This document shows positions 6,654 through 62,408 of a stretch of 64,000 nt of DNA, in pieces; position 1 is the stretch's first letter, and every line of letters begins with the position of its first letter. A program made the translations under genes and the position numbers. The notes under the pieces were generated by a model. It saw only the letters and a list, made by a program, of their open reading frames with translations, had not been told where the DNA came from and made no database searches. The stretch spans positions 1,045,013-1,109,012 of the forward strand of contig CAVUWY010000002.1 of NCBI GenBank assembly GCA_963745405.1. The letters are read 5' to 3'. Source of the DNA: an uncultured Chloroflexia bacterium (GTDB lineage: Bacteria > Chloroflexota > Limnocylindria > Limnocylindrales > CSP1-4).

Positions 6654-7322
6654 ATGCTGCCCGCCGTGCTTGCCTTCATCGACACGATCGTCATCCCGTT
6701 CCTCGACAGCCTCTACGGAGCCGTCGGCTATCTCGGCGTCTTCCTCGCGATGGCGATCGAGTCGGCGATGATCCCGCTCCCCTCCGAGCTGATCCTCCCG
6801 TACGCCGGATTCCTCATCTCGGACCCGACCCAGCTCGAGCCGCTCAGCCACTCCCCGTGGGCGTTCTGGATCGTCGTCATCGTGGCGACGCTCGGGAATA
6901 CGGTCGGCTCCCTCATCGGCTACGCCATCGGCGCCTACGGAGGGCGGCCGTTCCTCGACCGGTGGGGCAAGTACGTCCTCATCAGCCCCCACGACATCGA
7001 GCTCGCCGAACGCTTCTTCGATCGATACGGCGCCGCGACCGCGTTCTTCAGCCGTCTGCTTCCAGTGGTCCGGACCTTCATCAGCTTTCCGGCCGGGGTG
7101 GCCCGCATGCCGCTCGCGACGTTCATCGTCTTCTCGACGGCCGGGGCGTTCCTCTGGTCGACCGCCCTCGTCTTCGCCGGGACGCAACTCGGGGCGCACT
7201 GGGAGGACATCCGCCACACCCTCCAGCCGTTCGACACGCTGCTCGTGGTCATCGTCGTCGCCCTCGTCGCCCTGTTCGTCTGGTGGCGGGTGGGCCACCC
7301 CGGCTGGAGACGGGCCGCCTGA
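6654..7322 (+). CDS. DedA/SNARE-associated family membrane protein
   Basis: ATG at 6654 within listed ORF 6228..7322. Motifs: ...AIESAMIPLPSELILPYAGFL...GRPFLDRWGKYVLI...FFSRLLPVVRTFISFPAGVARM. Confidence 0.85.
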   Translation: MLPAVLAFIDTIVIPFLDSLYGAVGYLGVFLAMAIESAMIPLPSELILPYAGFLISDPTQLEPLSHSPWAFWIVVIVATLGNTVGSLIGYAIGAYGGRPFLDRWGKYVLISPHDIELAERFFDRYGAATAFFSRLLPVVRTFISFPAGVARMPLATFIVFSTAGAFLWSTALVFAGTQLGAHWEDIRHTLQPFDTLLVVIVVALVALFVWWRVGHPGWRRAA

Positions 7323-18883: not shown

Positions 18884-20233
18884 GTGATCGACCGCCTCCC
18901 GCCGCAGAGCCTCGAAGCAGAGCAGTCCGTGCTCGGCGCGCTCCTCATCGACCGTGACGCGATCATCGAGGTCGCCGACTTCCTCCGCCCGGAGGACTTC
19001 TACCGGCCGGCGAACGGCTCCATCTACTCGGCCGTCCTCGACCTGTACGAGCGTCGCGAGCCGATCGACATCGTGACCGTCGCCGAGACGCTCGAACGGG
19101 ACGGAGCGCTCGAGACCATCGGCGGGCGGACCTACCTCTCGAGCCTGGCCAACCAGACGCCGACCGCGGTCCACGCCGTCCCCTACGCTCGGATCGTCGA
19201 GCGCAAGGCGGTCCTCCGCAACCTCATCGCCGCCGCGGGCCGGATCGCCGGCATCGGATACGAGGATCCTGCCGAGATCCAGGAAGCGGTCGACCGGGCC
19301 GAGAGCGAGCTCTTCACGGTGAGCCAGCGGCGGATCACCGTCGGGTTCAGCCGTCTCAATCGCCTCCTCCACGACGCCTACGACCGGCTCGACTACCTCC
19401 ATGCTCATCGGGGCGAGATCAACGGCATCCGGACCGGCTTCAACGACCTCGATGCGCTGACGACCGGGTTGCAGAAGAGCGACCTCGTGATCGTCGCGGC
19501 GCGGCCATCGGTCGGCAAGACGAGCCTCGCCCTCAACATCGCCGAGCACGCCGCCGTCATCGACCGGAAGAGCGTCGGCGTGTTCAGCCTGGAGATGAGC
19601 AAGGAGCAGCTGGTCCTGCGGCTCCTGTCGAGCGTCGCCAACATCGACAGCCAGCGGCTCCGCAGCGGGTTCCTCGAGGAGCTCGACTTCGCCCGGATCG
19701 CACCCGCGATGAACTCGCTGTCCGAGGCCCCGATGTACATCGACGACACGCCGAGCATCTCGACGATGGAATTGCGCACGAAGGCCCGTCGACTGCAGGC
19801 CGAGTCCGGCCTCGACCTGATCATCGTCGACTACCTCCAATTGATGCAGGCCTCGACGACGAGCCGGGACGCGAACCGGGTCCAGGAAGTGTCGGAGATC
19901 TCCCGCGGACTCAAGTCCCTCGCTCGTGAGTTGTCGGTGCCCGTGATCGCCCTCTCCCAGCTGTCCCGTCAACCGGAGATGCGCGAGAGCAAGGAGCCAC
20001 GCCTGTCCGACCTCCGCGAGTCCGGCGCGATCGAACAGGACGCCGACCTCGTCCTGTTCCTGTGGCGCGACAAGGAACGGTCGCAGGACGACGGCGAGCA
20101 GGACGGCGAGGTCGTGAAACTCAAGCTCGCCAAGCACCGCAACGGCCCGACCGGCGAGATCGACCTGTGGTTCAAGAAGCGGCAGACCCGCTTCGTGAGC
20201 TACGCCGGCGAGCGCTACGCGGAGGCCGGCTGA
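18884..20233 (+). CDS. dnaB: replicative DNA helicase
   Basis: Listed 449-aa ORF with PPQSLEAEQSVLGALL, GFNDLD, ARPSVGKTSLALN and IVDYLQLM. Confidence 0.95.
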   Translation: MIDRLPPQSLEAEQSVLGALLIDRDAIIEVADFLRPEDFYRPANGSIYSAVLDLYERREPIDIVTVAETLERDGALETIGGRTYLSSLANQTPTAVHAVPYARIVERKAVLRNLIAAAGRIAGIGYEDPAEIQEAVDRAESELFTVSQRRITVGFSRLNRLLHDAYDRLDYLHAHRGEINGIRTGFNDLDALTTGLQKSDLVIVAARPSVGKTSLALNIAEHAAVIDRKSVGVFSLEMSKEQLVLRLLSSVANIDSQRLRSGFLEELDFARIAPAMNSLSEAPMYIDDTPSISTMELRTKARRLQAESGLDLIIVDYLQLMQASTTSRDANRVQEVSEISRGLKSLARELSVPVIALSQLSRQPEMRESKEPRLSDLRESGAIEQDADLVLFLWRDKERSQDDGEQDGEVVKLKLAKHRNGPTGEIDLWFKKRQTRFVSYAGERYAEAG

Positions 20234-20483
20234 GCACGATTCGGTGCGGCGCCGCACCGATGGAGCGGCCTGCTTCGCAGCCGTTTCCGTCGTCCCTTGG
20301 GGCTCGATCGCCCGTCGCCGTCGCTCCTCTGCGGATTTCGTGCGAAAACCTACGAAAATCCACGTGAAAACTCGGTGCGCACACGCTTGACTGCGCGCGT
20401 ATCCTCCCCTCCATGTTCGTGGCCAGCGGACTCGGGGCCCCGCTGACCCGCAGTCGACGTCAGCGCGTGGAGGTTCGACGAGG

Positions 20484-20792
20484 GTGTTCGAGGACCGCGT
20501 ACTGACCTGCCGTGATTGCTCCGAAGAATTCATCTTCTCGAGCGGCGAGCAGGCCTTCTTTGCGAGCAAGAGTCTGCAGAACGATCCCCAGCGGTGTCCG
20601 AACTGCAGAGCGGCAGCCAAGCGAGCACGAACGGTGGGTGGGCCCCGCGAATACCACACGGCGATCTGCGGCGATTGCGGTGGCCAGGCCACGGTCCCGT
20701 TCGCGCCGCGTAACGATCGCCCGGTCTACTGCAGCTCCTGCTTCGACAAGGTCCGGGCGAGCTCGAGTTCGGAGAGCGCGAGTCCCGTCTGA
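20484..20792 (+). CDS. zinc-ribbon protein (two CxxC...CxxC units)
   Basis: Listed 102-aa ORF with CRDC...CPNC and CGDC...CSSC. GGAGG lies 10 nt upstream of the GTG. Confidence 0.7.
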   Translation: MFEDRVLTCRDCSEEFIFSSGEQAFFASKSLQNDPQRCPNCRAAAKRARTVGGPREYHTAICGDCGGQATVPFAPRNDRPVYCSSCFDKVRASSSSESASPV

Positions 20793-20870
20793 CCCGGCGT
20801 CCATCCTCGCGCCTAGACTCTCGTCGAGCCCCGCACGGGCGTGGCCGACCCGCGAGCGAGGGAGACACCG

Positions 20871-21074
20871 ATGGGCGTGATCATCATCCGGGAGATGGTC
20901 GGTACGAGCCCGCGCTCGTGGAGCGATGCAGCCCGCCAGGCCGTCGCCACCGCATCGCGGACCGTCCGCAACATCCGGACGGTCGAAGTCGTGAAGTCCT
21001 CGGCGATCGTCGAGGACAGCGAGATCGTCGAATACCGGGTCGAGCTCAAGATCGGCTTCGAGTACGAGGGCTGA
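20871..21074 (+). CDS. dodecin family flavin-binding protein
   Basis: The ATG at 20871 is preceded by GAGGGAG. The 67-aa product reads ...EMVGTSPRSWSDAARQAV...YRVELKIGFEYE, typical of dodecins. Confidence 0.8.
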   Translation: MGVIIIREMVGTSPRSWSDAARQAVATASRTVRNIRTVEVVKSSAIVEDSEIVEYRVELKIGFEYEG

Positions 21075-21262
21075 CCAGGGCCGCTCCTGATCCGCACACC
21101 GAGAAGCGTCCACCGACCAACGCCGGCTGCCGAGCGCGTGCCTCGCAGCTAATCGACAGGTGAGCCCTCCGGGCGACCATCCGCCCATGGCGCTCCGACG
21201 GCCCGCCGGCCCGATCCAACCCAGCCCGGCCGCCCGATCGGTCGGCTCGGCACCAGTGCGGA

Positions 21263-21292
21263 TTGACGCGGCGCCCGGCGCATCCGTATCGT
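21263..21292 (+). promoter_or_regulatory. candidate promoter of the STAND regulator gene
   Basis: TTGACG (21263-21268), an 18-nt spacer, then TATCGT (21287-21292). Its position argues against the upstream ATG at 21187 as the start. Confidence 0.4.
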
Positions 21293-21423
21293 CTCAACGA
21301 CCCGACGTCTCCGCGACCCTCGCTCCCGGCAAGCCCAATGCCGCTTCGCGACCGCCTATCGCCGTCGGACCTGGCCGTCACGCGACCGCGGTACCGCCCA
21401 GTGCCCGCCTGGTCTCCGCCGAC

Positions 21424-24400
21424 GTGAACAACTTTCCGATCCAGCAATCGAAGGTCCAGGTCCCGCCGTTGCGGGATCAGACGCTGGCACGCGACCGTCT
21501 CCTCGAGTGGCTCCACGCGAAGGTCACTCATCGGCTGGTCTTCCTCATCGCCGAGGCGGGCTACGGCAAGACCACCCTGCTGGCCGACTTCACCCGGCGC
21601 AGTCGCCTCCGGGTGATGTGGTATCGCCTGGACGAGACCGACCGCGACTGGGTCACCGTCCTCAACCACCTGGTGGCGGCGGGCCGGGTGGCGGACCCCT
21701 CGTTCGGCTCCTCCACGTGGTCGCTCCTCGGCGAGCTCGACACGGGCGTGGCTCCGATGCAGCACATCGTGGCGACCTACATCCGCGAACTCCAGGACAT
21801 CGGGCAGCAGCCGGCGGCGCTCATCCTCGACGATTACCACCGCGTCGAGGACGTGCCGGAGATCCAGTACATCGTCCGCGAGATCGTCGCCCACGCACCG
21901 GACCGCCTCGCGATCGTCGTCGCCAGCCGACGACAGCCGTCGCTCCCGATCGCCCGCCTCCGTGCGCTCGGCGAGCTCGCCGAGCTGACCCGCGAGGACC
22001 TCCGTTTCGATCCGTCCGAGACCGAGCGGCTGTTTCGGGAGACCTACGGCAGACCGCTCGAACCCGACGTGCTCCACGAGCTCAACGATCGGACCGAGGG
22101 CTGGGCCGCCTCACTCCAGCTCGTCCAGGCGGCCCTCCGCGAGCGGTCGATGGGGGAGGCGCGGGCGTTCGTCCAGTCACTCAGCGGAGCGCGCGGGACG
22201 CTCCACGACTACCTGGCCGAGGAGGTCGTCGGCGACCTCGCTCCCGAGCTCCAGGCGTTCCTCATGCGGACGTCGATCCTCGCCGAGCTCGATCTGGAGG
22301 TCGCGGCCCTCGTTGCGGGGATCGACCACGCGACCGCGGAGCGCTTCGTCGACGATGCCGCGAGGGCTGGTCTCCTGCCCCGGACCGACGATCGGGCCCC
22401 GTCGAGGTACCACCCTCTCGTCCGGACGTTCCTCGAGGACCGTCTACGCCGCGAGATCGGCGACTCGGGAGTGGCCGATCTCCATCGGACGGTCGCCCGA
22501 TTCGGCGAATCGCGTGACTGGAAGCTCGCCGCCCAGCACTACGCGGCGGCCGGCGACACGGACGAGATCCATCGCGTCCTCGTCGCCTCGATCCAGGACA
22601 TCATGGGCGGCGGCGGCTTCGCGGTCGCGGAGTCGTACGTCCGCCGCCATCCGGAGTTCGGCGCCGACCCGACCTTCGGCCTCTTCCTCTCCCGGCGCGA
22701 CCTCTACGCAGGCGACTTCGAGCGCGCCCGCTCCCGCGCCAGCGCCGCGGTCGACGCCTTCCCTGCCGAGTCAGGCACCCACCTCTCGCACCTCGCCCTG
22801 GCGAATCAAATGTCGATCGTGGCAATGACCGGAGCGATCGACAAGGCTGCGGAACTGGCGGATGAACTGCATTCCAGACGCCCGGAATATGGGTTGGACC
22901 TCATTGCTCGCGCGACGATTGGTACAGCCGTGGTTTCCACGGATGGCGACCTTCAAGCTTTTGAGCGATTGCTCATCGAGGCGATGAGCCATCAATCGCG
23001 CCGGAGGCAGCATCACTACGTGGGGATTACGAGCCTGAACCTCGCCGTTACGTGCATTGCGATCGGAACTAATTTCGATGCGTTAGACCACGCGAATCGG
23101 GCGATCGGTCTCCTCTCTTCGACTTCGGAGGGCACTGAGCTCCCCACAGCTCGAATCGCACGCGCAGAGGCATTGATTCGTATCGGCGAAATCGCGGAAG
23201 GGGGAGCGGAGCTCAGACGAGCCGAAGCAGCGCGGGGGCCGGCACGCCAGATGGCTCTGCTGGAAGCCGCCGATATCGAGTCGCGATATGGCCGCCAGGG
23301 CGAGGCCTTGCGTCTCCTTGCCGAGGTCGACGAAACATCTCTGGTTCCAGGCGAGGCCGACTTTCGGAGAATTGTGCTTGCCGAACTGGTTGGCCGGGAG
23401 GGCGACTTCGAACGCGCCAGCGTCCTGCTCGCTGAGTCCAGCGAGATGAGGCTGCGTGAGACCGCTGCGTTCCGCGGTCGGTGGCTCATGGAGGGAGCTC
23501 GGCTTCAGTTTCGAGCCGGAAGAGATGGCCGCGAACTACTTGATCAGGCCCGACTGGTGCTCCGCCGACAAGGAGCGGCTTACTGGCTCCAGACCGCCGA
23601 CCTCATCGATGCCACACACCAAGACGCGCCACGACTTAGCGAAGTCATTTCTAACGTACTCGCATCACAACCTTCGATCGCGAGTGTTTGCGCAGACGAA
23701 CTCGCGCCGCGCCTTGGACAACTCCCAAGTGGGCCCACCGAATTGCTGCACCAAGAGGCTCGACTTAGACCCGAACGCTGGAGACCAATCGTAAGGCGAG
23801 CGGTACTCGATGGCTCGTCGTCCTCCGCGCTGGCGGCCGCCGTCATCCTGGACGAAATCGGAGAGGCCTCCGATGTTCCGTTGCTCCGCGAGTTTGCCCG
23901 CGTTCGAAAGGGCGAGGCCGTGTCGCTCGGCCGAGGCCTTGCGCGCCGAACGGCTCCGCGGTCCCACATTAATGATCTGGGCCGCGTTTCGATCGCAGTC
24001 GGAGATCGCGTCGAGGACAACTCCGCGATACGGCGCAAGGTGCTGTCGCTGGTCTGCTTCCTCACGACGCGTCCCGGTTTCGCTGCGACGCGGGACCAGG
24101 TGCTCGATGCGCTATGGCCGGACTTGGAGCCCGACGTGGCGGTCAATTCCCTAAATCAGACGATCTACTTTCTCAGAAGGGTCTTCGAGCCCTCCTATCG
24201 CGAGGATGAGTCGGCTCAATACGTTCACCACTCGGGAGAAGTGGTCCGGCTAGACACCGAACTCGTGTCGAGTCAGAGCAACCGCTGTCAAGACCTCTGC
24301 CGCGATGCCCGTCTCACGCTCGACCCTGATCTGGTCGACCGCCTAACGGCCTCTTACACGAATCGGTTCGCACTGGACTTCGAGTACGAGGAATGGGCCG

Positions 24401-24525
24401 CGCCATTTCGGCAGACACTTCACGCCGCCTACCTGGACGTCGTCGAACAGGCGATTCGCGGAGAGATCGCTCGCGGGCAATTTGATCGCGCGGGGTACCT
24501 ACGCCCGTTCCGCCATGAGGGTTGA
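21424..24525 (+). CDS. STAND P-loop NTPase - TPR-like repeats - OmpR-type wHTH - BTAD regulator; 3' end truncated by a frameshift
   Basis: Walker A is IAEAGYGKTTLL, Walker B is ALILDDYH, and a MalT-like TEGWAASLQLV segment follows. The C-terminal wHTH reads RRKVLSLVCFLTTRPGFAATRDQVLDALWPDLE...LNQTIYFLRRVF. The last BTAD helices (ARSAMRVDPEADPVEGALLQIYRSTGSYSAAAEQ) continue in another frame to a TGA at 24656-24658. Start is the GTG at 21424 (alternatives 21160/21187). Confidence 0.8.
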   Translation: MNNFPIQQSKVQVPPLRDQTLARDRLLEWLHAKVTHRLVFLIAEAGYGKTTLLADFTRRSRLRVMWYRLDETDRDWVTVLNHLVAAGRVADPSFGSSTWSLLGELDTGVAPMQHIVATYIRELQDIGQQPAALILDDYHRVEDVPEIQYIVREIVAHAPDRLAIVVASRRQPSLPIARLRALGELAELTREDLRFDPSETERLFRETYGRPLEPDVLHELNDRTEGWAASLQLVQAALRERSMGEARAFVQSLSGARGTLHDYLAEEVVGDLAPELQAFLMRTSILAELDLEVAALVAGIDHATAERFVDDAARAGLLPRTDDRAPSRYHPLVRTFLEDRLRREIGDSGVADLHRTVARFGESRDWKLAAQHYAAAGDTDEIHRVLVASIQDIMGGGGFAVAESYVRRHPEFGADPTFGLFLSRRDLYAGDFERARSRASAAVDAFPAESGTHLSHLALANQMSIVAMTGAIDKAAELADELHSRRPEYGLDLIARATIGTAVVSTDGDLQAFERLLIEAMSHQSRRRQHHYVGITSLNLAVTCIAIGTNFDALDHANRAIGLLSSTSEGTELPTARIARAEALIRIGEIAEGGAELRRAEAARGPARQMALLEAADIESRYGRQGEALRLLAEVDETSLVPGEADFRRIVLAELVGREGDFERASVLLAESSEMRLRETAAFRGRWLMEGARLQFRAGRDGRELLDQARLVLRRQGAAYWLQTADLIDATHQDAPRLSEVISNVLASQPSIASVCADELAPRLGQLPSGPTELLHQEARLRPERWRPIVRRAVLDGSSSSALAAAVILDEIGEASDVPLLREFARVRKGEAVSLGRGLARRTAPRSHINDLGRVSIAVGDRVEDNSAIRRKVLSLVCFLTTRPGFAATRDQVLDALWPDLEPDVAVNSLNQTIYFLRRVFEPSYREDESAQYVHHSGEVVRLDTELVSSQSNRCQDLCRDARLTLDPDLVDRLTASYTNRFALDFEYEEWAAPFRQTLHAAYLDVVEQAIRGEIARGQFDRAGYLRPFRHEG

Positions 24526-24684
24526 CCCAGAGGCTGACCCAGTCGAAGGGGCTCTCTTGCAGATCTACCGGTCTACCGGGTCGTACTCGGCTGCAGCAGA
24601 GCAAGCGTCCCACTACCACTCGCTTGGCTTCGACGACGATGTTCTCGCCGGTGCGTGAATCGACTCGATAGGTAACGTGCCGTA

Positions 24685-24714
24685 TTGACCGGTGGCGTCC
24701 GGCATCCCTATAGT
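24685..24714 (+). promoter_or_regulatory. strong sigma-70-type promoter in non-coding DNA
   Basis: TTGACC (24685-24690), an 18-nt spacer, then TATAGT (24709-24714). Confidence 0.5.
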
Positions 24715-24720
24715 CCGGCC

Positions 24721-24853
24721 CACTTCGTAGTACTCCAGTACTAGGAAGCAAAGTTAAGTACCTCGGACGCGCCGATGCACCACCTGAAATGGGCACTTAG
24801 GGTGGGGCGGAGCGAGTAGTGCAACCGACCGACCTAGTCATTAGGTCGGTTTT
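24721..24853 (+). ncRNA. candidate small RNA (about 130 nt) bounded by promoter and intrinsic terminator
   Basis: It starts about 7 nt after the TATAGT and ends at a hairpin plus U-tract. It contains the palindrome TAGTACTccAGTACTA (24728-24743). The longest ORF spotted inside is only 14 codons, and no known RNA family was recognised. Confidence 0.3.
24829..24853 (+). terminator. rho-independent terminator
   Basis: CCGACCTA-gtcat-TAGGTCGG (8-bp stem, 5-nt loop) followed by TTTT. Confidence 0.55.
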
Positions 24854-24939
24854 CGTGTCTCAAGGGACACGGAGGCCGCGAGGAGGATCGAGCGTGACGC
24901 CCGAAACGCTCAACAAGGGCTGGTAGTCGCGGCTCGCTG

Positions 24940-24965
24940 GAGTACGACCGATGCGGTTCGTACTC
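24940..24965 (+). other. hairpin enclosing the SD and start codon of a small hydrophobic ORF
   Basis: GAGTACGA (24940-24947) pairs perfectly with TCGTACTC (24958-24965). The SD GGAG (24939-24942) is in the left arm and the ATG at 24951 is in the loop. Confidence 0.35.
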
Positions 24966-25040
24966 TTGCGTCTGGCTGCCGCTCTGAGCGCTATCGTCGC
25001 TCTCGCGCTGGCAGGGGGGGCGTCCCTAAGGGGCTTCTAG
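24951..25040 (+). CDS. 29-aa hydrophobic peptide ORF (signal-peptide-like or small membrane peptide)
   Basis: MRFVLLRLAAALSAIVALALAGGASLRGF, with GGAG 8 nt upstream. It is below the ORF-track cutoff and could equally be a gene remnant. Confidence 0.25.
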   Translation: MRFVLLRLAAALSAIVALALAGGASLRGF

Positions 25041-25104
25041 TACGTTGGTCGGGTTCTGAGGCGAAGTCGGAGGGATTAGAGTTCGGCTCGATACCGAGAT
25101 CCAC

Positions 25105-27016
25105 ATGAGGACTCAGTTGCCGAAGGCCCTGAAGCTCTACATCTCTGGGCTCGTGTCGCCGCTGCAGTTGCAACGGTCGTCACGAGCCTTGTCGTTTCCC
25201 ATCGACCCTCGCATTGCCATCCTCGGCGCGGATGGGTCGGACGCGTTCAGCGGAGGCTGGGTTGGCCTCGCGTTCTGGATCATCGTCACGCTCATGGCCT
25301 CGGCCTTGCCCGTTCGAGATGCCCGGAGGTACTCTGGCTCGCGGTTTCGATTGCGCCGATCATCGCGGCGATGAGCCTTGGCGGGCCGACTGCGGCAGCG
25401 TGGGTCGCCCTGATCGGGTCGACCGAGCTCCGTGAGATACGCGGGCGAATCCCCTGGTACGGAACGCTCGCCAATCACGCCGGGATTGTTCTTCCTGCGA
25501 TCGTCGGGGCCGTCGGTAATGCAGGCGGTCGGGCGGTCGACGCCGGATGCCACGCGTCGACTTCTTCGCGACGATTCTCGGGGCGGCGTGTCTTCTTCGT
25601 TCTGAACCTCGATTCTCGCCTCGTCGCTCAGCGCTCCGGACGCGAGCGACGAGTTCAGACGTGCGATCTGGCTGACGCTCGCGGCTATCGGCAGCCAACT
25701 TTCTCGCACTTGCACCGCTCGCCTGGTTGATGGCGCAGATCTACCAGCTGCCAGGCGTCGGCTGGTGGGCGACGTTGCTGTTCGCGCTGCCGCTGTATAC
25801 GACGCGGGTCGCGCATCACCGGTTCGTCGAGATGCGCGAGATGTTCACCCAGACGATCGAGAGCCTGGCGAACGCGGTCGACAAACGGGATCCGTTCACG
25901 AGCAACCACTCGAAGCGGGTGATGCTGATCGCGAGCGACATCGGGCGCGAGATGAAGTGCAGCGAGTCCGACATGGAGGCGCTCGAGTGGGGCGGGCTGC
26001 TCCACGACATCGGCAAGATCGGCGTCCGCGACGAGATCCTCCTCAAGCAGGAGCGATTGACCAAGGACGAGCGGATGAAGATGAACGCGCATCCCGAGCT
26101 CGGGGCCCAGATCATCGCGCCGGTCCGGCGCCTCGCGCCAGAGCTGCCGATCATCCGACACCACCACGAGTGGTACAACGGCTCGGGCTATCCGGACCGC
26201 CTCATCGGCGACGAGATCCCGCGGCTCGCCCGCATCCTCCACGTCGCCGACGCGTTCGAGGCGATGACCGCCAAGCGGCCTTATCGGATGACACCGCTCA
26301 CCGCCGAACAGGCGCTCGGGGAGCTGCGCAAGTTCGCCGGTGTGCAGTTCGATCCGGTCGTGGTCGACGCATTCGTCCGGACGCCGTGGGTCGACGGCGT
26401 GAGCGATCCCGGCCGCTCGACGGATCTCCGCCCGATCCCGCTGCTCGCCCAGGCCGCGGGGCGTCTCACGGCCTGCCACGGGCAGATCCGAGGCAGGCTC
26501 CGCCTCCGACATCCGCTAGCGCGTGCTGATCCTCGGCGTCGCGCTCGGCCTCGTCGCCGGGTTCCTCCTCGGCGGGGACATCTTCAACCTCCTCGCCAAC
26601 ACGCGGCGCCTGCGCTGGCTCGCCCTTCTTGCCCTCGGCGCGATCGTCCGGTTCGGCACCGAGGCGGCCCTGAATGCCGGCATCGGGATCGCCGACACCC
26701 TCCGACTGCCGTTGTTCGTCTTCGCCTTCTCGCTCCTGCTAGTCGGTTGCTGGGCCAACCGCCGCGAACCGGGCTTCATCATCGCCTTCGTCGGGATCGC
26801 CGCGAACCTCGTGCCGATCGTCGTCAACGGCGGCTACATGCCGATCTGGGAGCCGAGCCTCGTCGCTGCCGGGTTCACGCCCGCCGACGTGCACTCGCAG
26901 TTCCACACGATCCTCCCGCCGCCCCTCGACCTCAACTTCCTCCTCCACGCCGGACCGCTCGGCGACGTCATCCCGATCCCGGTGCCGATCATCCAGAACG
27001 TCGCCTCGATCGGTGA
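25105..27016 (+). pseudogene. HD-GYP domain protein with decayed N-terminal membrane domain
   Basis: The catalytic part is intact in the frame of ORF 25727..27016 (HSKRV, LLHDIGKIG, HHHEWYNGSGYPDRL). The upstream membrane-domain segments are scattered over all three frames between 25105 and 25727 and need at least five frame changes to join. The open frame runs to 27016, but that would overlap the next gene by 494 nt. The authentic stop is probably TAG 26517-26519 or TGA 26527-26529 in another frame. Confidence 0.7.
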
Positions 27017-59960: not shown

Positions 59961-60119
59961 GTGGCCGGTCGGCGTGGTTCTCTCGGTCAGGGGATCGTCG
60001 AGTACGGGATCATCCTGAGCGGGATGGCCGCCGTGGCCGCCGTGATCCTCCTGCTCTTCCCCGAAACGGTGGCCCAGCTCCTCGGGCTCATCGGGACCGC
60101 CATCGATAGTGCCAGATAG
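59961..60119 (+). CDS. divergent Flp-family pilin (52 aa), not in ORF track
   Basis: The GTG at 59961 lies 6 nt after the preceding stop. VAGRRGSLGQG/IVEYGIILSGMAAVAAVILLLF... carries the G-x4-EY prepilin-peptidase-type motif and a hydrophobic helix. Confidence 0.6.
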   Translation: MAGRRGSLGQGIVEYGIILSGMAAVAAVILLLFPETVAQLLGLIGTAIDSAR

Positions 60120-60223
60120 CACGCTGGTACCAAAATCCTACATCGCGCACCACGGATCCACTCGTATATTCAGGCCCGCCCTCACCTGAGAGGCGACAGC
60201 ACTCATCCAGGAGGCCAAACTAG

Positions 60224-60394
60224 ATGGCACTCGTCAATGCGTTCCTCGCCTCGCTGCAGAGCGACGAGGAAGGCCAGGGTCTCGCCGAGTACGCGCTGAT
60301 CCTCGCCCTCATCGCGATCGTCGCGATCATCGCCCTCATCTTCCTGGGCGGCCAGGTCAGCAAGATCCTCAGCAACGTCGGCAACTCGGTCTAG
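60224..60394 (+). CDS. flp: Flp family type IVb pilin
   Basis: CAGGAGG lies upstream of the ATG. MALVNAFLASLQSDEEGQG/LAEYALILALIAIVAIIALIFLGG... (56 aa). Confidence 0.88.
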   Translation: MALVNAFLASLQSDEEGQGLAEYALILALIAIVAIIALIFLGGQVSKILSNVGNSV

Positions 60395-60430
60395 CTCCCT
60401 CGACCGGGCGCACCGGTTCAGAAACGTCGG

Positions 60431-60455
60431 ACGCCCGGGCCAGCGGCCCGGGCGT
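60431..60455 (+). terminator. hairpin terminator after flp copy 1
   Basis: ACGCCCGGGCC-agc-GGCCCGGGCGT is a perfect 11-bp stem followed by a T-containing tail. Confidence 0.6.
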
Positions 60456-60514
60456 TCGTCTACCCCCGGTGCGCCGACGCATCGGGCTCCGGTCCCGATA
60501 GGGATCGGTGCGTA

Positions 60515-60543
60515 TTGACACCATCCGGGCCGCTCCGTACCGT
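60515..60543 (+). promoter_or_regulatory. candidate promoter of flp copy 2
   Basis: TTGACA (60515-60520), a 17-nt spacer, then TACCGT (60538-60543). Confidence 0.5.
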
Positions 60544-60617
60544 GGCGCGGCCCACCGCCCACCTCGCTTCCCATTTCGACATGGGAGGACTCCTGAGGAA
60601 AGGAGGTAACCGACAAG

Positions 60618-60788
60618 ATGGTTCTCATCTCATCGTTCATCGCATCGCTTCGGCGCGACGATGAAGGACAGGGTCTCGCCGAATATGCACTCATCCTCGC
60701 CCTGATCGCGATCATCGCGATCATCGCCCTGATCTTCCTGGGGGGCCAGGTGAGCAAGATCCTCAGCGCAGTCGGTAACTCCGTCTAG
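60618..60788 (+). CDS. flp: Flp family type IVb pilin
   Basis: AAGGAGG lies upstream of the ATG. MVLISSFIASLRRDDEGQG/LAEYALILALIAIIAIIALIFLGG... (56 aa). Confidence 0.88.
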   Translation: MVLISSFIASLRRDDEGQGLAEYALILALIAIIAIIALIFLGGQVSKILSAVGNSV

Positions 60789-60807
60789 CGCTCAGACAGC
60801 GACTCTC

Positions 60808-60840
60808 GACGACCGTCCGGGCAGAGCTCGGGCGGTCGTC
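60808..60840 (+). terminator. hairpin terminator after flp copy 2
   Basis: GACGACCGTCCG...CGGGCGGTCGTC forms a 12-bp stem with one G-U pair. Confidence 0.55.
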
Positions 60841-60903
60841 CTGGTCTCGACGCCGGCCGACGCGCAGTGCGTCGGACCCGCGGGACGACCTCTCCCGGGC
60901 GCC

Positions 60904-60932
60904 TTGACACGTTCGGAGCAGGTCCCTAGTGT
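60904..60932 (+). promoter_or_regulatory. candidate promoter of flp copy 3
   Basis: TTGACA (60904-60909), a 17-nt spacer, then TAGTGT (60927-60932). Confidence 0.5.
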
Positions 60933-61034
60933 GACCCGGCCATCGGAGCCGGACCCCGACGCTCAGCGTGGAGGGCCCGGCGGACCCACGAGGTGGGACC
61001 CGATGGACTCTTGATGAAAGGAGGTAAACAAGTC

Positions 61035-61205
61035 GTGGCTTTCTTTTCTGCTCTCATCGCTTCCCTCAAGACTGACGAGGAAGGCCAGGGTCTCGCCGAG
61101 TACGCGCTGATCCTCGCCCTCATCGCGATCGTCGCGATCATCGCCCTCATCTTCCTGGGCGGCCAGGTCAGCAAGATCCTCAGCAACGTCGGCAACTCGG
61201 TCTAG
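61035..61205 (+). CDS. flp: Flp family type IVb pilin
   Basis: The GTG at 61035 lies 9 nt after AAGGAGG, inside listed ORF 60993..61205. VAFFSALIASLKTDEEGQG/LAEYALILALIAIVAIIALIFLGG... (56 aa). Confidence 0.88.
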   Translation: MAFFSALIASLKTDEEGQGLAEYALILALIAIVAIIALIFLGGQVSKILSNVGNSV

Positions 61206-61253
61206 CACCGATGCCTTCGGGCGGCGTCAACGGCGCCGTCAGCGCTTCAGTGG

Positions 61254-61284
61254 CGACGGCCCTTCCCTCGGGAGGGCCGTCGCG
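61254..61284 (+). terminator. hairpin terminator after flp copy 3
   Basis: GCGACGGCCCT(t)CCC-tc-GGGAGGGCCGTCGC forms a stem of about 14 bp. Confidence 0.6.
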
Positions 61285-61448
61285 ATTCGGTCCCGACGCC
61301 CGTCTGCCAGGACCCTCCGGACGGAGCACGGGAGTACCCGGTTTTCATGCCAATTCTTCCTAATGGTCCTAGCCCTTTGGTATAGTCGCGCCGCCTTTGG
61401 GCGGTGCTACAGTGGTGCCACCTGTCACACGGCTGGGGAGTACAAAAC

Positions 61449-62408
61449 TTGAAGCGGTCCAACAGGCTTGTCCTGCTCATCGGCGCCCTTTTGGCGGTCG
61501 TCGCCTTCGTCGGGGTGATCCTCCTGCTTGGGCAGGGGACCGGCGGCGGCGGTCCGCAAGCTACGCCGACCGCCCCCACCACCGCCCAGGTCGTCAAGGC
61601 CACGGTCGACATCCCCGCCGGGACCGTCGTCACGAGCACGATGGTCGACGTCGAGACGGTGCCGATCGCCGCCTCGGCGGATTCGATCTCTGACCCGGGC
61701 CTCGTGATCGGCAAGACGATCCGCGAGAACACCAAGGCCGGCGCGATCCTCAGCTTCAGCGCCTTCATCGATACCGGCCAGACCAGCAACGTGACCGACA
61801 ACATCCCGCAGGGCCTGCGAGCCATGGCGGTCGAGGTCGATCAGGTGACCGGCGTCGGGACCTTGATCCACACGGGCGACACGGTCGACCTGATCATCGC
61901 GATGGACATCCAGAGCGTGGTCCCCGATCCGAAGAACGCGCCCCAGGTGGTCAACGTCGGAACGCCGCAGTCGACGGTCAAGATGATCATCCAGAACCTG
62001 AAGGTGGTCGGAACCCTGCTCCCGACCGTGACGACGACCGGTGAGGCGACCCCGCCGCCGGCCGCCGCCTCACCGACTCCGAACCCCGGGGCCACCCAGC
62101 CGCCGACGTCGTTGAAGAACCCGGCCACGGCGTTCGAGATCGTCATGGTCGCCGTCACCGCCAACCAGGCGGAAGCGATCCGCTACGCCCAGCTGAACGG
62201 CCAGTCCGGCCAGGTGGCCGATCGGGGCCAGACGTCGATCTCCCTCGTCCTCCGCTCACCGCGCGACTACATCGCGGTCGATGCCAGCGGCAGCCCGATC
62301 CCGGGTGCCAGCCCGCTCATCCCGCCGCTCGAGGTCACCGACGGCGTCACCCTCAAGACGCTCATCACCAAGTACGGCGTGATCCCGCCGGACGTCATCA
62401 TCAAGTAG
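61449..62408 (+). CDS. cpaB: Flp pilus assembly protein CpaB/RcpC
   Basis: The TTG at 61449 lies 8 nt after GGGGAG. An N-terminal TM (LVLLIGALLAVVAFVGVILLL) is followed by a SAF-like domain (VVKATVDIPAGTVVTSTMV), a Pro-rich insert and the C-terminal CpaB region. An alternative GTG lies at 61404. Confidence 0.85.
   Translation: MKRSNRLVLLIGALLAVVAFVGVILLLGQGTGGGGPQATPTAPTTAQVVKATVDIPAGTVVTSTMVDVETVPIAASADSISDPGLVIGKTIRENTKAGAILSFSAFIDTGQTSNVTDNIPQGLRAMAVEVDQVTGVGTLIHTGDTVDLIIAMDIQSVVPDPKNAPQVVNVGTPQSTVKMIIQNLKVVGTLLPTVTTTGEATPPPAAASPTPNPGATQPPTSLKNPATAFEIVMVAVTANQAEAIRYAQLNGQSGQVADRGQTSISLVLRSPRDYIAVDASGSPIPGASPLIPPLEVTDGVTLKTLITKYGVIPPDVIIK

Follow-up and report, generated by a model that had tools for sequence, protein, structure and literature searches.

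Which family does a regulator belong to when its N-terminal half resembles MalT and its C-terminal end resembles a SARP, and is the break in its reading frame present in the organism? Both questions are raised by a gene, here given the working label REG, at positions 21424-24658 (+ strand) of a 64,000-nucleotide stretch of DNA from an uncultured Chloroflexia bacterium (GTDB class Limnocylindria, order Limnocylindrales; contig CAVUWY010000002.1 of assembly GCA_963745405.1). The whole stretch is referred to as the window, and positions are those of the window unless stated otherwise. Once its frame is restored, REG encodes a protein of ~1077 amino acids. Taken together, the data make it likely that REG is a MalT-type STAND switch with a SARP output, that it is a syntenic core gene of the Limnocylindria, and that its frameshift is an assembly error.

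REG comprises, in order, a MalT-clade STAND NTPase, an arm and winged-helix domain (WHD), a helical sensor of ~480 amino acids, an OmpR-type winged helix and a BTAD; the last two make up a SARP module that occupies roughly the final 225 amino acids. The parts of the gene are as follows.

21424 to 24501, + strand: main reading frame of REG, amino acids 1-1026, with the MalT-type NTPase, arm, winged-helix domain, helical sensor, winged helix-turn-helix (wHTH) and first part of the BTAD.
21445 to 22599, + strand: MalT-like NTPase, arm and winged-helix domain (NCBIfam model NF003420, PDB profile and invariant motifs).
22507 to 23946, + strand, limits approximate: all-helical TPR-like sensor (predicted by AlphaFold to consist entirely of helices; matches to TPR and to the AfsR TPR region).
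23980 to 24276, + strand: OmpR-type winged helix, with the Trans_reg_C core at 24031-24219 (Pfam, homologues and fold match).
24265 to 24655, + strand: BTAD, divided by the frameshift; the +1 frame holds its last 51 codons (24503-24655), which are followed by the stop at 24656-24658.

A preliminary description of this DNA, made from the letters and their open reading frames, had proposed the same order, with NTPase and TPR first and wHTH and BTAD last. This order is borne out by the MalT model, by scores above the Trans_reg_C and BTAD cutoffs, and by fold matches; the coordinates given for the gene and the motifs GYGKTTLL and LILDDYH are likewise present as described. Walker A (AEAGYGKTTLL) is found at 21550-21582, Walker B (LILDDYH) at 21820-21840 and the histidine motif of the WHD (RYHPLV) at 22405-22422. 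The NCBIfam MalT model NF003420 matches amino acids 8-392 at 2e-64, with a score of 218 bits; as the MalT equivalog cutoff is 537, far above this score, REG is not a MalT orthologue, and its likeness to MalT is confined to the N-terminal half. Pfam AAA_16 and AAA_22 match weakly, and WHD_MalT (PF25873) is among the precomputed annotations of family members. Sequence profiles from the PDB match MalT (8bob) at 2.9e-57 and the TPR region of AfsR (8jke) at 7e-7. Residues G125, G127, K128, T129, D215, D216 and H409, which belong to Walker A, Walker B and the WHD histidine motif, are invariant in 115 homologues.

At the C-terminus both components of the SARP module are confirmed by domain search, although the BTAD passes (23.3 bits, cutoff 22.1) only once the frames have been joined. 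Trans_reg_C scores 24 bits in the unrestored whole protein (residues 870-932), below the cutoff of 26.2, but reaches 26.3-26.8 bits on C-terminal fragments and 26.3 with the frames joined. Signals in relatives are clearer: among 16 homologues that were scanned, AAA_16 was present in all 16 and BTAD (best 5.3e-15) and Trans_reg_C each in 15, and the Pfam model for helix-turn-helix (HTH) domains of LuxR type, GerE, had no match in the window protein or in any of the 16. A sequence profile of the C-terminal end matches the SARP module of AfsR (8hvr) at 8.3e-9.

Structure predictions agree with this division. An AlphaFold model of the intact orthologue P0004, built from a 115-sequence alignment, has a pLDDT of 88.8 and a pTM of 0.74, with residues 1-81 disordered; its best fold matches in the PDB are MalT 8bob (E 3.5e-17, target-normalised TM 0.71, 29% identity) and the archaeal STAND-TPR protein 6mfv. 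A model of the last 242 residues of a second orthologue (L001) has a pLDDT of 91.2 and six PDB matches below E 1e-3, all of them SARP modules with TM of 0.62-0.66 over the whole length: AfsR 8k60 (two chains) and 8hvr, and EmbR 2ff4 (two chains) and 2fez. The comparison with AfsR suggested in the preliminary description thus finds the C-terminal module of REG matching those of AfsR and EmbR. Conservation is unevenly spread, the mean fraction of the majority residue being 0.73 in the NTPase, 0.70 in the arm and WHD, 0.45 in the sensor (the least conserved part of REG), 0.74 in the wHTH and 0.67 in the BTAD; such a pattern fits a switch whose sensor varies while its DNA target is fixed.

Is REG, then, an AfsR turned back to front? 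The genome itself supplies the material for a comparison, as it also encodes a canonical LAL/MalT protein with a LuxR HTH, a small SARP and a canonical AfsR-type large SARP (SARP, P-loop NOD and TPR).

Contig C2, ~814,000-816,300, - strand: canonical LAL.
Contig C2, ~2,120,700-2,121,000, - strand: small SARP.
Contig C3, ~33,500, - strand: AfsR-type protein.

The NTPase of REG aligns with that of the canonical LAL at 35% identity (E 1.8e-41), whereas the alignment to the AfsR-type protein covers the P-loop only (154 amino acids, 27%, E 0.001). On this basis REG is best described as an output-swapped MalT/LAL regulator, in which a SARP module has replaced the LuxR HTH, and not a circularly permuted AfsR. 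The idea of an inverted AfsR is accordingly abandoned: the NTPase is of the MalT/LAL clade, and the AfsR-type likeness is limited to the P-loop. With LAL, small SARP and AfsR-type SARP encoded beside REG, all three domain architectures coexist in a single organism. The BTAD scores 110 bits in the AfsR-type protein of this genome, compared to 23 in REG.

Comparison with characterised regulators leads to the same placement. With E. coli MalT, REG shares a colinear N-terminal 400 amino acids (NTPase, arm, and a WHD with the RYHPL histidine), followed by a long helical sensor and a DNA-binding output at the C-terminus, and by analogy REG would be expected to behave, as MalT does, as an activator that oligomerises in response to ligand and ATP; the output of MalT, however, is a LuxR/GerE HTH and that of REG an OmpR-type winged helix plus BTAD. 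With AfsR and the large SARPs of Streptomyces, REG has in common the kind of DNA-binding and activation module and the fact that both are STAND switches with TPR-like sensors. It differs in order (SARP, NB-ARC, TPR in those proteins; SARP module last in REG), in the NTPase (NB-ARC there, MalT-clade here), in the divergence of its BTAD and in having no association with a biosynthetic gene cluster. The SARP-LAL regulators PimR, FilR and SanG also combine a SARP module with a LAL-type ATPase half in one protein (PMC10972967), but there the SARP module is N-terminal, ahead of the ATPase, and in REG it is C-terminal, behind a complete sensor. In every published class (small, medium, large and SARP-LAL) the SARP module is N-terminal (PMC10972967; bioRxiv 10.64898/2026.09.02.748808), as the preliminary description had said of characterised SARPs. 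REG therefore misses one defining feature of each parent family, the LuxR HTH of MalT/LAL proteins and the N-terminal module of SARPs, and neither MalT nor AfsR-type SARP is a suitable label for it. A search of full-text literature, whose coverage excludes earlier STAND surveys in subscription journals, returned no paper on a C-terminal SARP module behind a MalT-type NTPase, and no studied member of the family was found in the literature searched.

Among the findings that would refute it, the preliminary description had named an architecture that proves to be common and annotated, and on this point it does not stand: REG belongs to just such a family. A protein search returned more than 1099 matches, and at least 555 loci with a relative of REG occur in species-representative genomes. 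The 120 matches listed, to which the figures on coverage, names and domains apply, are nearly all full-length (~97-100% coverage, 44-79% identity, ~1075-1215 amino acids, with few truncated entries), and carry precomputed BTAD, WHD_MalT, Trans_reg_C and AAA_16 domains. Public names describe the architecture already: 'ATP/maltotriose-dependent transcriptional regulator MalT/DNA-binding SARP family transcriptional activator' at JGI, and 'BTAD domain-containing putative transcriptional regulator [Chloroflexota]' at NCBI. The family is an unstudied variant of known STAND regulators to which annotation pipelines have already attached domain labels, and REG is an ordinary member of it.

Almost all of the best 80 of the at least 555 loci are labelled Chloroflexia, Chloroflexota or Candidatus Limnocylindrales. 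Within the class Limnocylindria the family was present in 116 of 201 sampled genomes, including nearly every genome of the taxonomic family to which the window organism belongs (f1; f2, f3 and f4 denote other families of the class), and full-length copies also occur in f4. A sample of 301 genomes of the phylum gave no match outside the class at E 1e-90. Relatives in f2, whose genomes are reduced (~1.1-1.4 Mb), have a short form of ~570 amino acids with NTPase, WHD, wHTH and BTAD and without the sensor of ~450 amino acids (for example L081, 1836-3770, + strand); no riboswitch lies behind the short form. The order of genes around REG is lexA, dnaB, a treble-clef zinc-finger gene, dodecin, REG, a cyclic di-GMP (c-di-GMP)-II riboswitch, a 29-amino-acid hydrophobic open reading frame (ORF), a membrane HD-GYP gene and a DUF5317-MFS gene, and is kept in ~70 of 80 species loci. 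REG is a vertically inherited, single-copy, syntenic core gene of soil Limnocylindria.

We turn now to the break in the frame. The main frame lies in an ORF at 21160-24525 (+) and, from the GTG at 21424, begins VNNFPIQQSKVQVPPLRDQTLARDRLLEWL; the +1 frame, open from 24347 on, runs to the TGA at 24656-24658 and reads ...ARSAMRVDPEADPVEGALLQIYRSTGSYSAAAEQASHYHSLGFDDDVLAGA (51 amino acids), with ...ARSAMRVDPEADPVEGALLQIYRSTGSYSAAAEQ... in the same frame. The position of the shift is the following.

24492 to 24503, + strand: single +1 frameshift site, with one base more than in orthologues (orthologue alignments, alignment to L083 DNA, and a short-read contig).

Frameshift-aware alignment to four orthologues (59-79% identical) places exactly one +1 shift in REG, at ~24503, with 51 codons displaced and the end at 24658; the frame disruption near 24502 and the restored C-terminus of the preliminary description are thereby recovered. 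The orthologues run through the site in one frame, as DRAG(I/V/L)xAR..A.

Two explanations merit consideration: an error in the consensus, and a real frameshift, which would leave either a 1033-amino-acid protein without the last two BTAD helices or no protein, with REG and its HD-GYP neighbour undergoing decay as one dispensable module. The extra base is, after all, in the window sequence, and the adjacent gene is broken too. The two explanations can be compared by aligning the window to L083, a contig with 78% DNA identity to it that encodes P0004, the 79%-identical orthologue. There are no indels in the ~3.35 kb from 21139 to 24491, then a 1-nt gap at 24492 (its placement ambiguous within 24492-24503) and twelve further frame-breaking indels at 25062-25684, that is, 13 in ~1.2 kb (24492-25684). 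DnaB and the 719-amino-acid DUF5317-MFS gene on either side have no frameshifts. Real decay would be expected to add substitutions as well, yet substitution rates at the three codon positions are 0.16/0.10/0.54 in intact REG, 0.25/0.18/0.53 in its displaced tail and 0.18/0.14/0.52 in the shattered part of the HD-GYP gene. Because the pattern is still coding-like in the broken parts, with no sign of relaxation, the indels are either extremely recent or not real.

Short reads point the same way. In run X2, from a soil metagenome, a short-read contig of 151 nt matches the window letter for letter at 24503-24644; upstream it goes on with the nine letters of 24493-24501 and is in consequence one base shorter and in frame. 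Contigs of the same run from a population with 90-95% similarity have single-base indel differences at or near the break points of the HD-GYP gene. Against this, the 86-nt stretch around the frameshift (24460-24545) has its sampled words in none of the runs searched. Broken copies of REG in other assemblies can be read in either direction. REG is split or has internal stops in several assemblies of 1-20 contigs (G149, G176, G182, G191, G038, G050 and G152); in most many-contig assemblies its homologue is a single frame. Such copies count in favor of decay, but their occurrence in assemblies of so few contigs (G149, G176, G182 and G191 among them) fits consensus errors of long reads, and suggests that the locus is prone to such errors in long-read metagenome-assembled genomes. 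Our conclusion, held with good confidence, is that the extra base arose as a consensus error where the assembly is locally poor; we regard a real frameshift as unlikely. As the shift is most probably an error of this kind, the organism very likely makes the full 1077-amino-acid protein.

Two approaches to the frameshifts were set aside. A genome-wide frameshift rate from composition alone proved unreliable at ~68% GC and was abandoned, the homology-based frameshift-aware alignment being used at the locus instead; and some apparent frameshifts near the locus were disregarded as they came from spurious alternative-frame query ORFs.

The 5' end of REG is less clear-cut, and turns in part on a promoter-like site ahead of the gene.

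21263 to 21292, + strand: promoter-like site P1, ahead of REG, TTGACG-N18-TATCGT.

GC content at the three codon positions is 0.72/0.42/0.91 from 21424 on, and 0.77/0.72/0.73 in 21187-21423. We prefer the GTG at 21424 as start, since coding-like codon-position GC begins exactly there and the upstream stretch contains a conserved promoter-like site; on present evidence 21424 is a plausible start and is favored over the ATG at 21187. Two observations count against it: the two closest orthologues align in frame from ATG 21187 in the frameshift-aware alignment, and 21187-21423 has no indels relative to L083 DNA, with third codon positions changed more often. A start at ATG 21187, giving a disordered N-terminal extension, is a possible alternative; the stretch from this ATG lacks periodicity of third-position GC (GC3), and AlphaFold predicts the extension to be disordered. 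Gene callers often translate the stretch up to 21424 as a Pro/Ala-rich N-terminal extension. Ahead of the coding region there are two conserved, non-coding-looking elements, P1 itself and TCGCAGCTAATCG (21144-21155, +). In orthologous loci P1 takes the form GTTGACA-N13-TCCNTATCGT.

GC content falls from ~0.70 to 0.60-0.65 over the 3' half of REG, the riboswitch and the 5' part of the HD-GYP gene (22500-25500), and GC3 falls from 0.91 to 0.61-0.73 in the same region. The possibility that the lower-GC stretch (22.8-25.7 kb) is foreign or misassembled DNA was rejected on finding an equal dip in the orthologous locus L001 (9500-12500); the dip is a property of the locus and not a mark of foreign DNA.

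If REG is a transcription factor, what might it regulate? The nearest candidates lie immediately behind it.

24667 to 24714, + strand: promoter P2, candidate operator, GATAGGTA-N6-CGTATTGACC-N18-TATAGT, beginning 8 nt after the REG stop.
24756 to 24839, + strand: c-di-GMP-II riboswitch aptamer (RF01786, 64.7 bits against a gathering threshold of 53.5).
25105 to 26520, + strand: gene for a membrane domain plus HD-GYP, with ~10-12 frame-breaking indels between 25062 and 25700.

The riboswitch, ~100 nt behind REG, is served by a promoter of its own at 24685-24714, and there is a hairpin resembling a terminator (arms 24828-24836 and 24842-24850) with TTTT after it. A riboswitch is found behind REG in 8 of 10 loci scanned, including an f4 locus. 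Between it and the HD-GYP gene is the hydrophobic 29-amino-acid ORF MRFVLLRLAAALSAIVALALAGGASLRGF (24951-25040, +), whose GGAG and ATG lie inside an inverted repeat (arms 24935-24947 and 24958-24970); in L083 a 29-amino-acid gene is called at the equivalent place (7048-7137). Relatives of the HD-GYP gene are single ORFs of 467-494 amino acids, and in the window it is the membrane domain that the indels break; 25062-25700 looks like a locally poor assembly consensus, not a pseudogene.

P1 and P2 share GCATCC-N-TAT-N-GT and are the sole two such sites in the 3.2-Mb genome; P1 is also one of only two sigma-70-like sites in 20200-25200. The upstream blocks of P2 are 86-100% conserved in 65 loci, with a variable spacer, and an f4 locus (L082) has the variant AATAGGTA-N6-GCGCTTGACA in the same geometry. 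With up to two mismatches allowed, 41 of 61 f1 genomes have exactly one P2 motif each, and that site lies 5-90 nt behind REG; the reversed motif, used as a control, had no matches in 201 genomes. P2 is the best candidate target: its conserved block sits upstream of the -35 by one helical turn, a geometry in keeping with an activator site. That REG acts on P2 (24667-24714) may be entertained as a tentative possibility, based on motif and position.

The window holds a second copy of the P2 motif, at 60497-60520 (+), reading GATAGGGATCGGTGCGTATTGACA, N17, TACCGT. The next gene, ~95 nt downstream of this copy, encodes a Flp-type pilin (60618-60788). The site falls inside a region (59961-62408) that comprises four tandem flp paralogues and, at 61404-62408, what we take, from a reading of its letters only, to be a possible CpaB-type pilus-assembly gene. 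A genome of the same genus (L084) has a diverged copy, GATAGGTA-GGTCGC-GGTTCTTGACA, on the same strand beside flp genes, and at the same stringency the flp-site copy was not detected in 60 other genomes of the family. A regulon defined by the P2 motif, having a single extra site in its own genome, was rejected as such and is kept as a weak lead.

STAND transcription factors such as MalT, AfsR and GutR are bacterial relatives of NLR immune receptors, and few have been studied. By analogy with MalT and AfsR, REG most probably works like both. It is probably a cytoplasmic, signal-sensing transcription factor of the STAND class, and would be kept closed at rest by the ADP-bound NTPase and the sensor; a ligand on the sensor would then permit exchange of ADP for ATP and oligomerisation. 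The C-terminal SARP modules of the oligomer would next occupy phased DNA sites, located at the -35 or adjacent to it, and bring in RNA polymerase by way of sigma region 4. In AfsR, the NOD and TPR domains inhibit the SARP domain and ATP binding relieves the inhibition (PMC10936776). The candidate target P2 would drive the c-di-GMP-II riboswitch, the 29-amino-acid peptide gene and the membrane HD-GYP phosphodiesterase. A more speculative extension, which we regard as doubtful, is that REG is a class-wide master regulator coupling a ligand, perhaps the downstream 29-amino-acid peptide or a nucleotide, to c-di-GMP turnover and surface adhesion: through the ATAGGTA site 8 nt after its own stop it would switch on the operon of riboswitch, peptide and HD-GYP genes, and in this genus also the flp promoter of the tad locus (60497-60520).

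Several observations weigh against this account, both of what REG is and of what it does. In the window protein Trans_reg_C and BTAD barely exceed their cutoffs. The read-through evidence for an intact frame is one 151-nt contig with a depth of ~3, and in the search for the assembly's own reads none were recovered and no run held more than 21% of the sampled words, to which the 86-nt stretch noted above is to be added. SARPs bind direct repeats that overlap the -35 and activate transcription; the candidate site (24667-24692) shows no clear repeat of this kind, and neither behind nor ahead of REG were direct or tandem repeats of the SARP type found. The -35 and -10 of P2 are near consensus, so that an activator may be unneeded, and ATAGGTA, conserved as it is, might serve as an UP-like element or be bound by some other factor. 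Across the class genes generally keep their order, so that adjacency by itself is a weak sign of a functional link. Finally, with no studied family member, all mechanistic steps are carried over from MalT and AfsR.

Could the signal sensed by REG instead be a phage? Defence systems often contain STAND NTPases that carry large helical sensors (PMC13581612), and Avs4 is among the distant fold matches of REG, which might on this view be an Avs-like anti-phage sensor with a DNA-binding effector and not a housekeeping regulator. However, no PADLOC model matches, the output is a complete SARP activator module and not a nuclease or other killing effector, and the gene, unlike those of defence islands, occurs as one copy that keeps strictly to its place beside lexA and dnaB across dozens of genera; we consider a role in defence very improbable. 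Weaker still, and scarcely credible, is a programmed +1 or -1 ribosomal frameshift yielding two C-terminal isoforms: both frames are open across the site (24347-24523), but four close orthologues pass through it in one frame, most members in the class have one unbroken frame, GGG TAC CTA CGC contains no slippery heptamer, and the site falls within a cluster of similar indels that extends into the next gene.

The reading of REG as a MalT-type switch with a SARP output at its C-terminus has a practical upshot: annotation should show the gene as intact, under a name based on its domains, and treat the frame breaks in this stretch as assembly errors. Were the proposed action on P2 and the flp promoter true, these sites would give the MalT-SARP class its first defined operator and regulon. 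As a single gene REG is ordinary, its architecture being annotated in hundreds of public genomes. The family as a whole shows a MalT chassis joined to a SARP output in large numbers among uncultured soil bacteria, here in a conserved core gene and not in a regulator of an antibiotic gene cluster, and widens the known range of SARP-type activation beyond the Actinomycetota and beyond the N-terminal arrangement.

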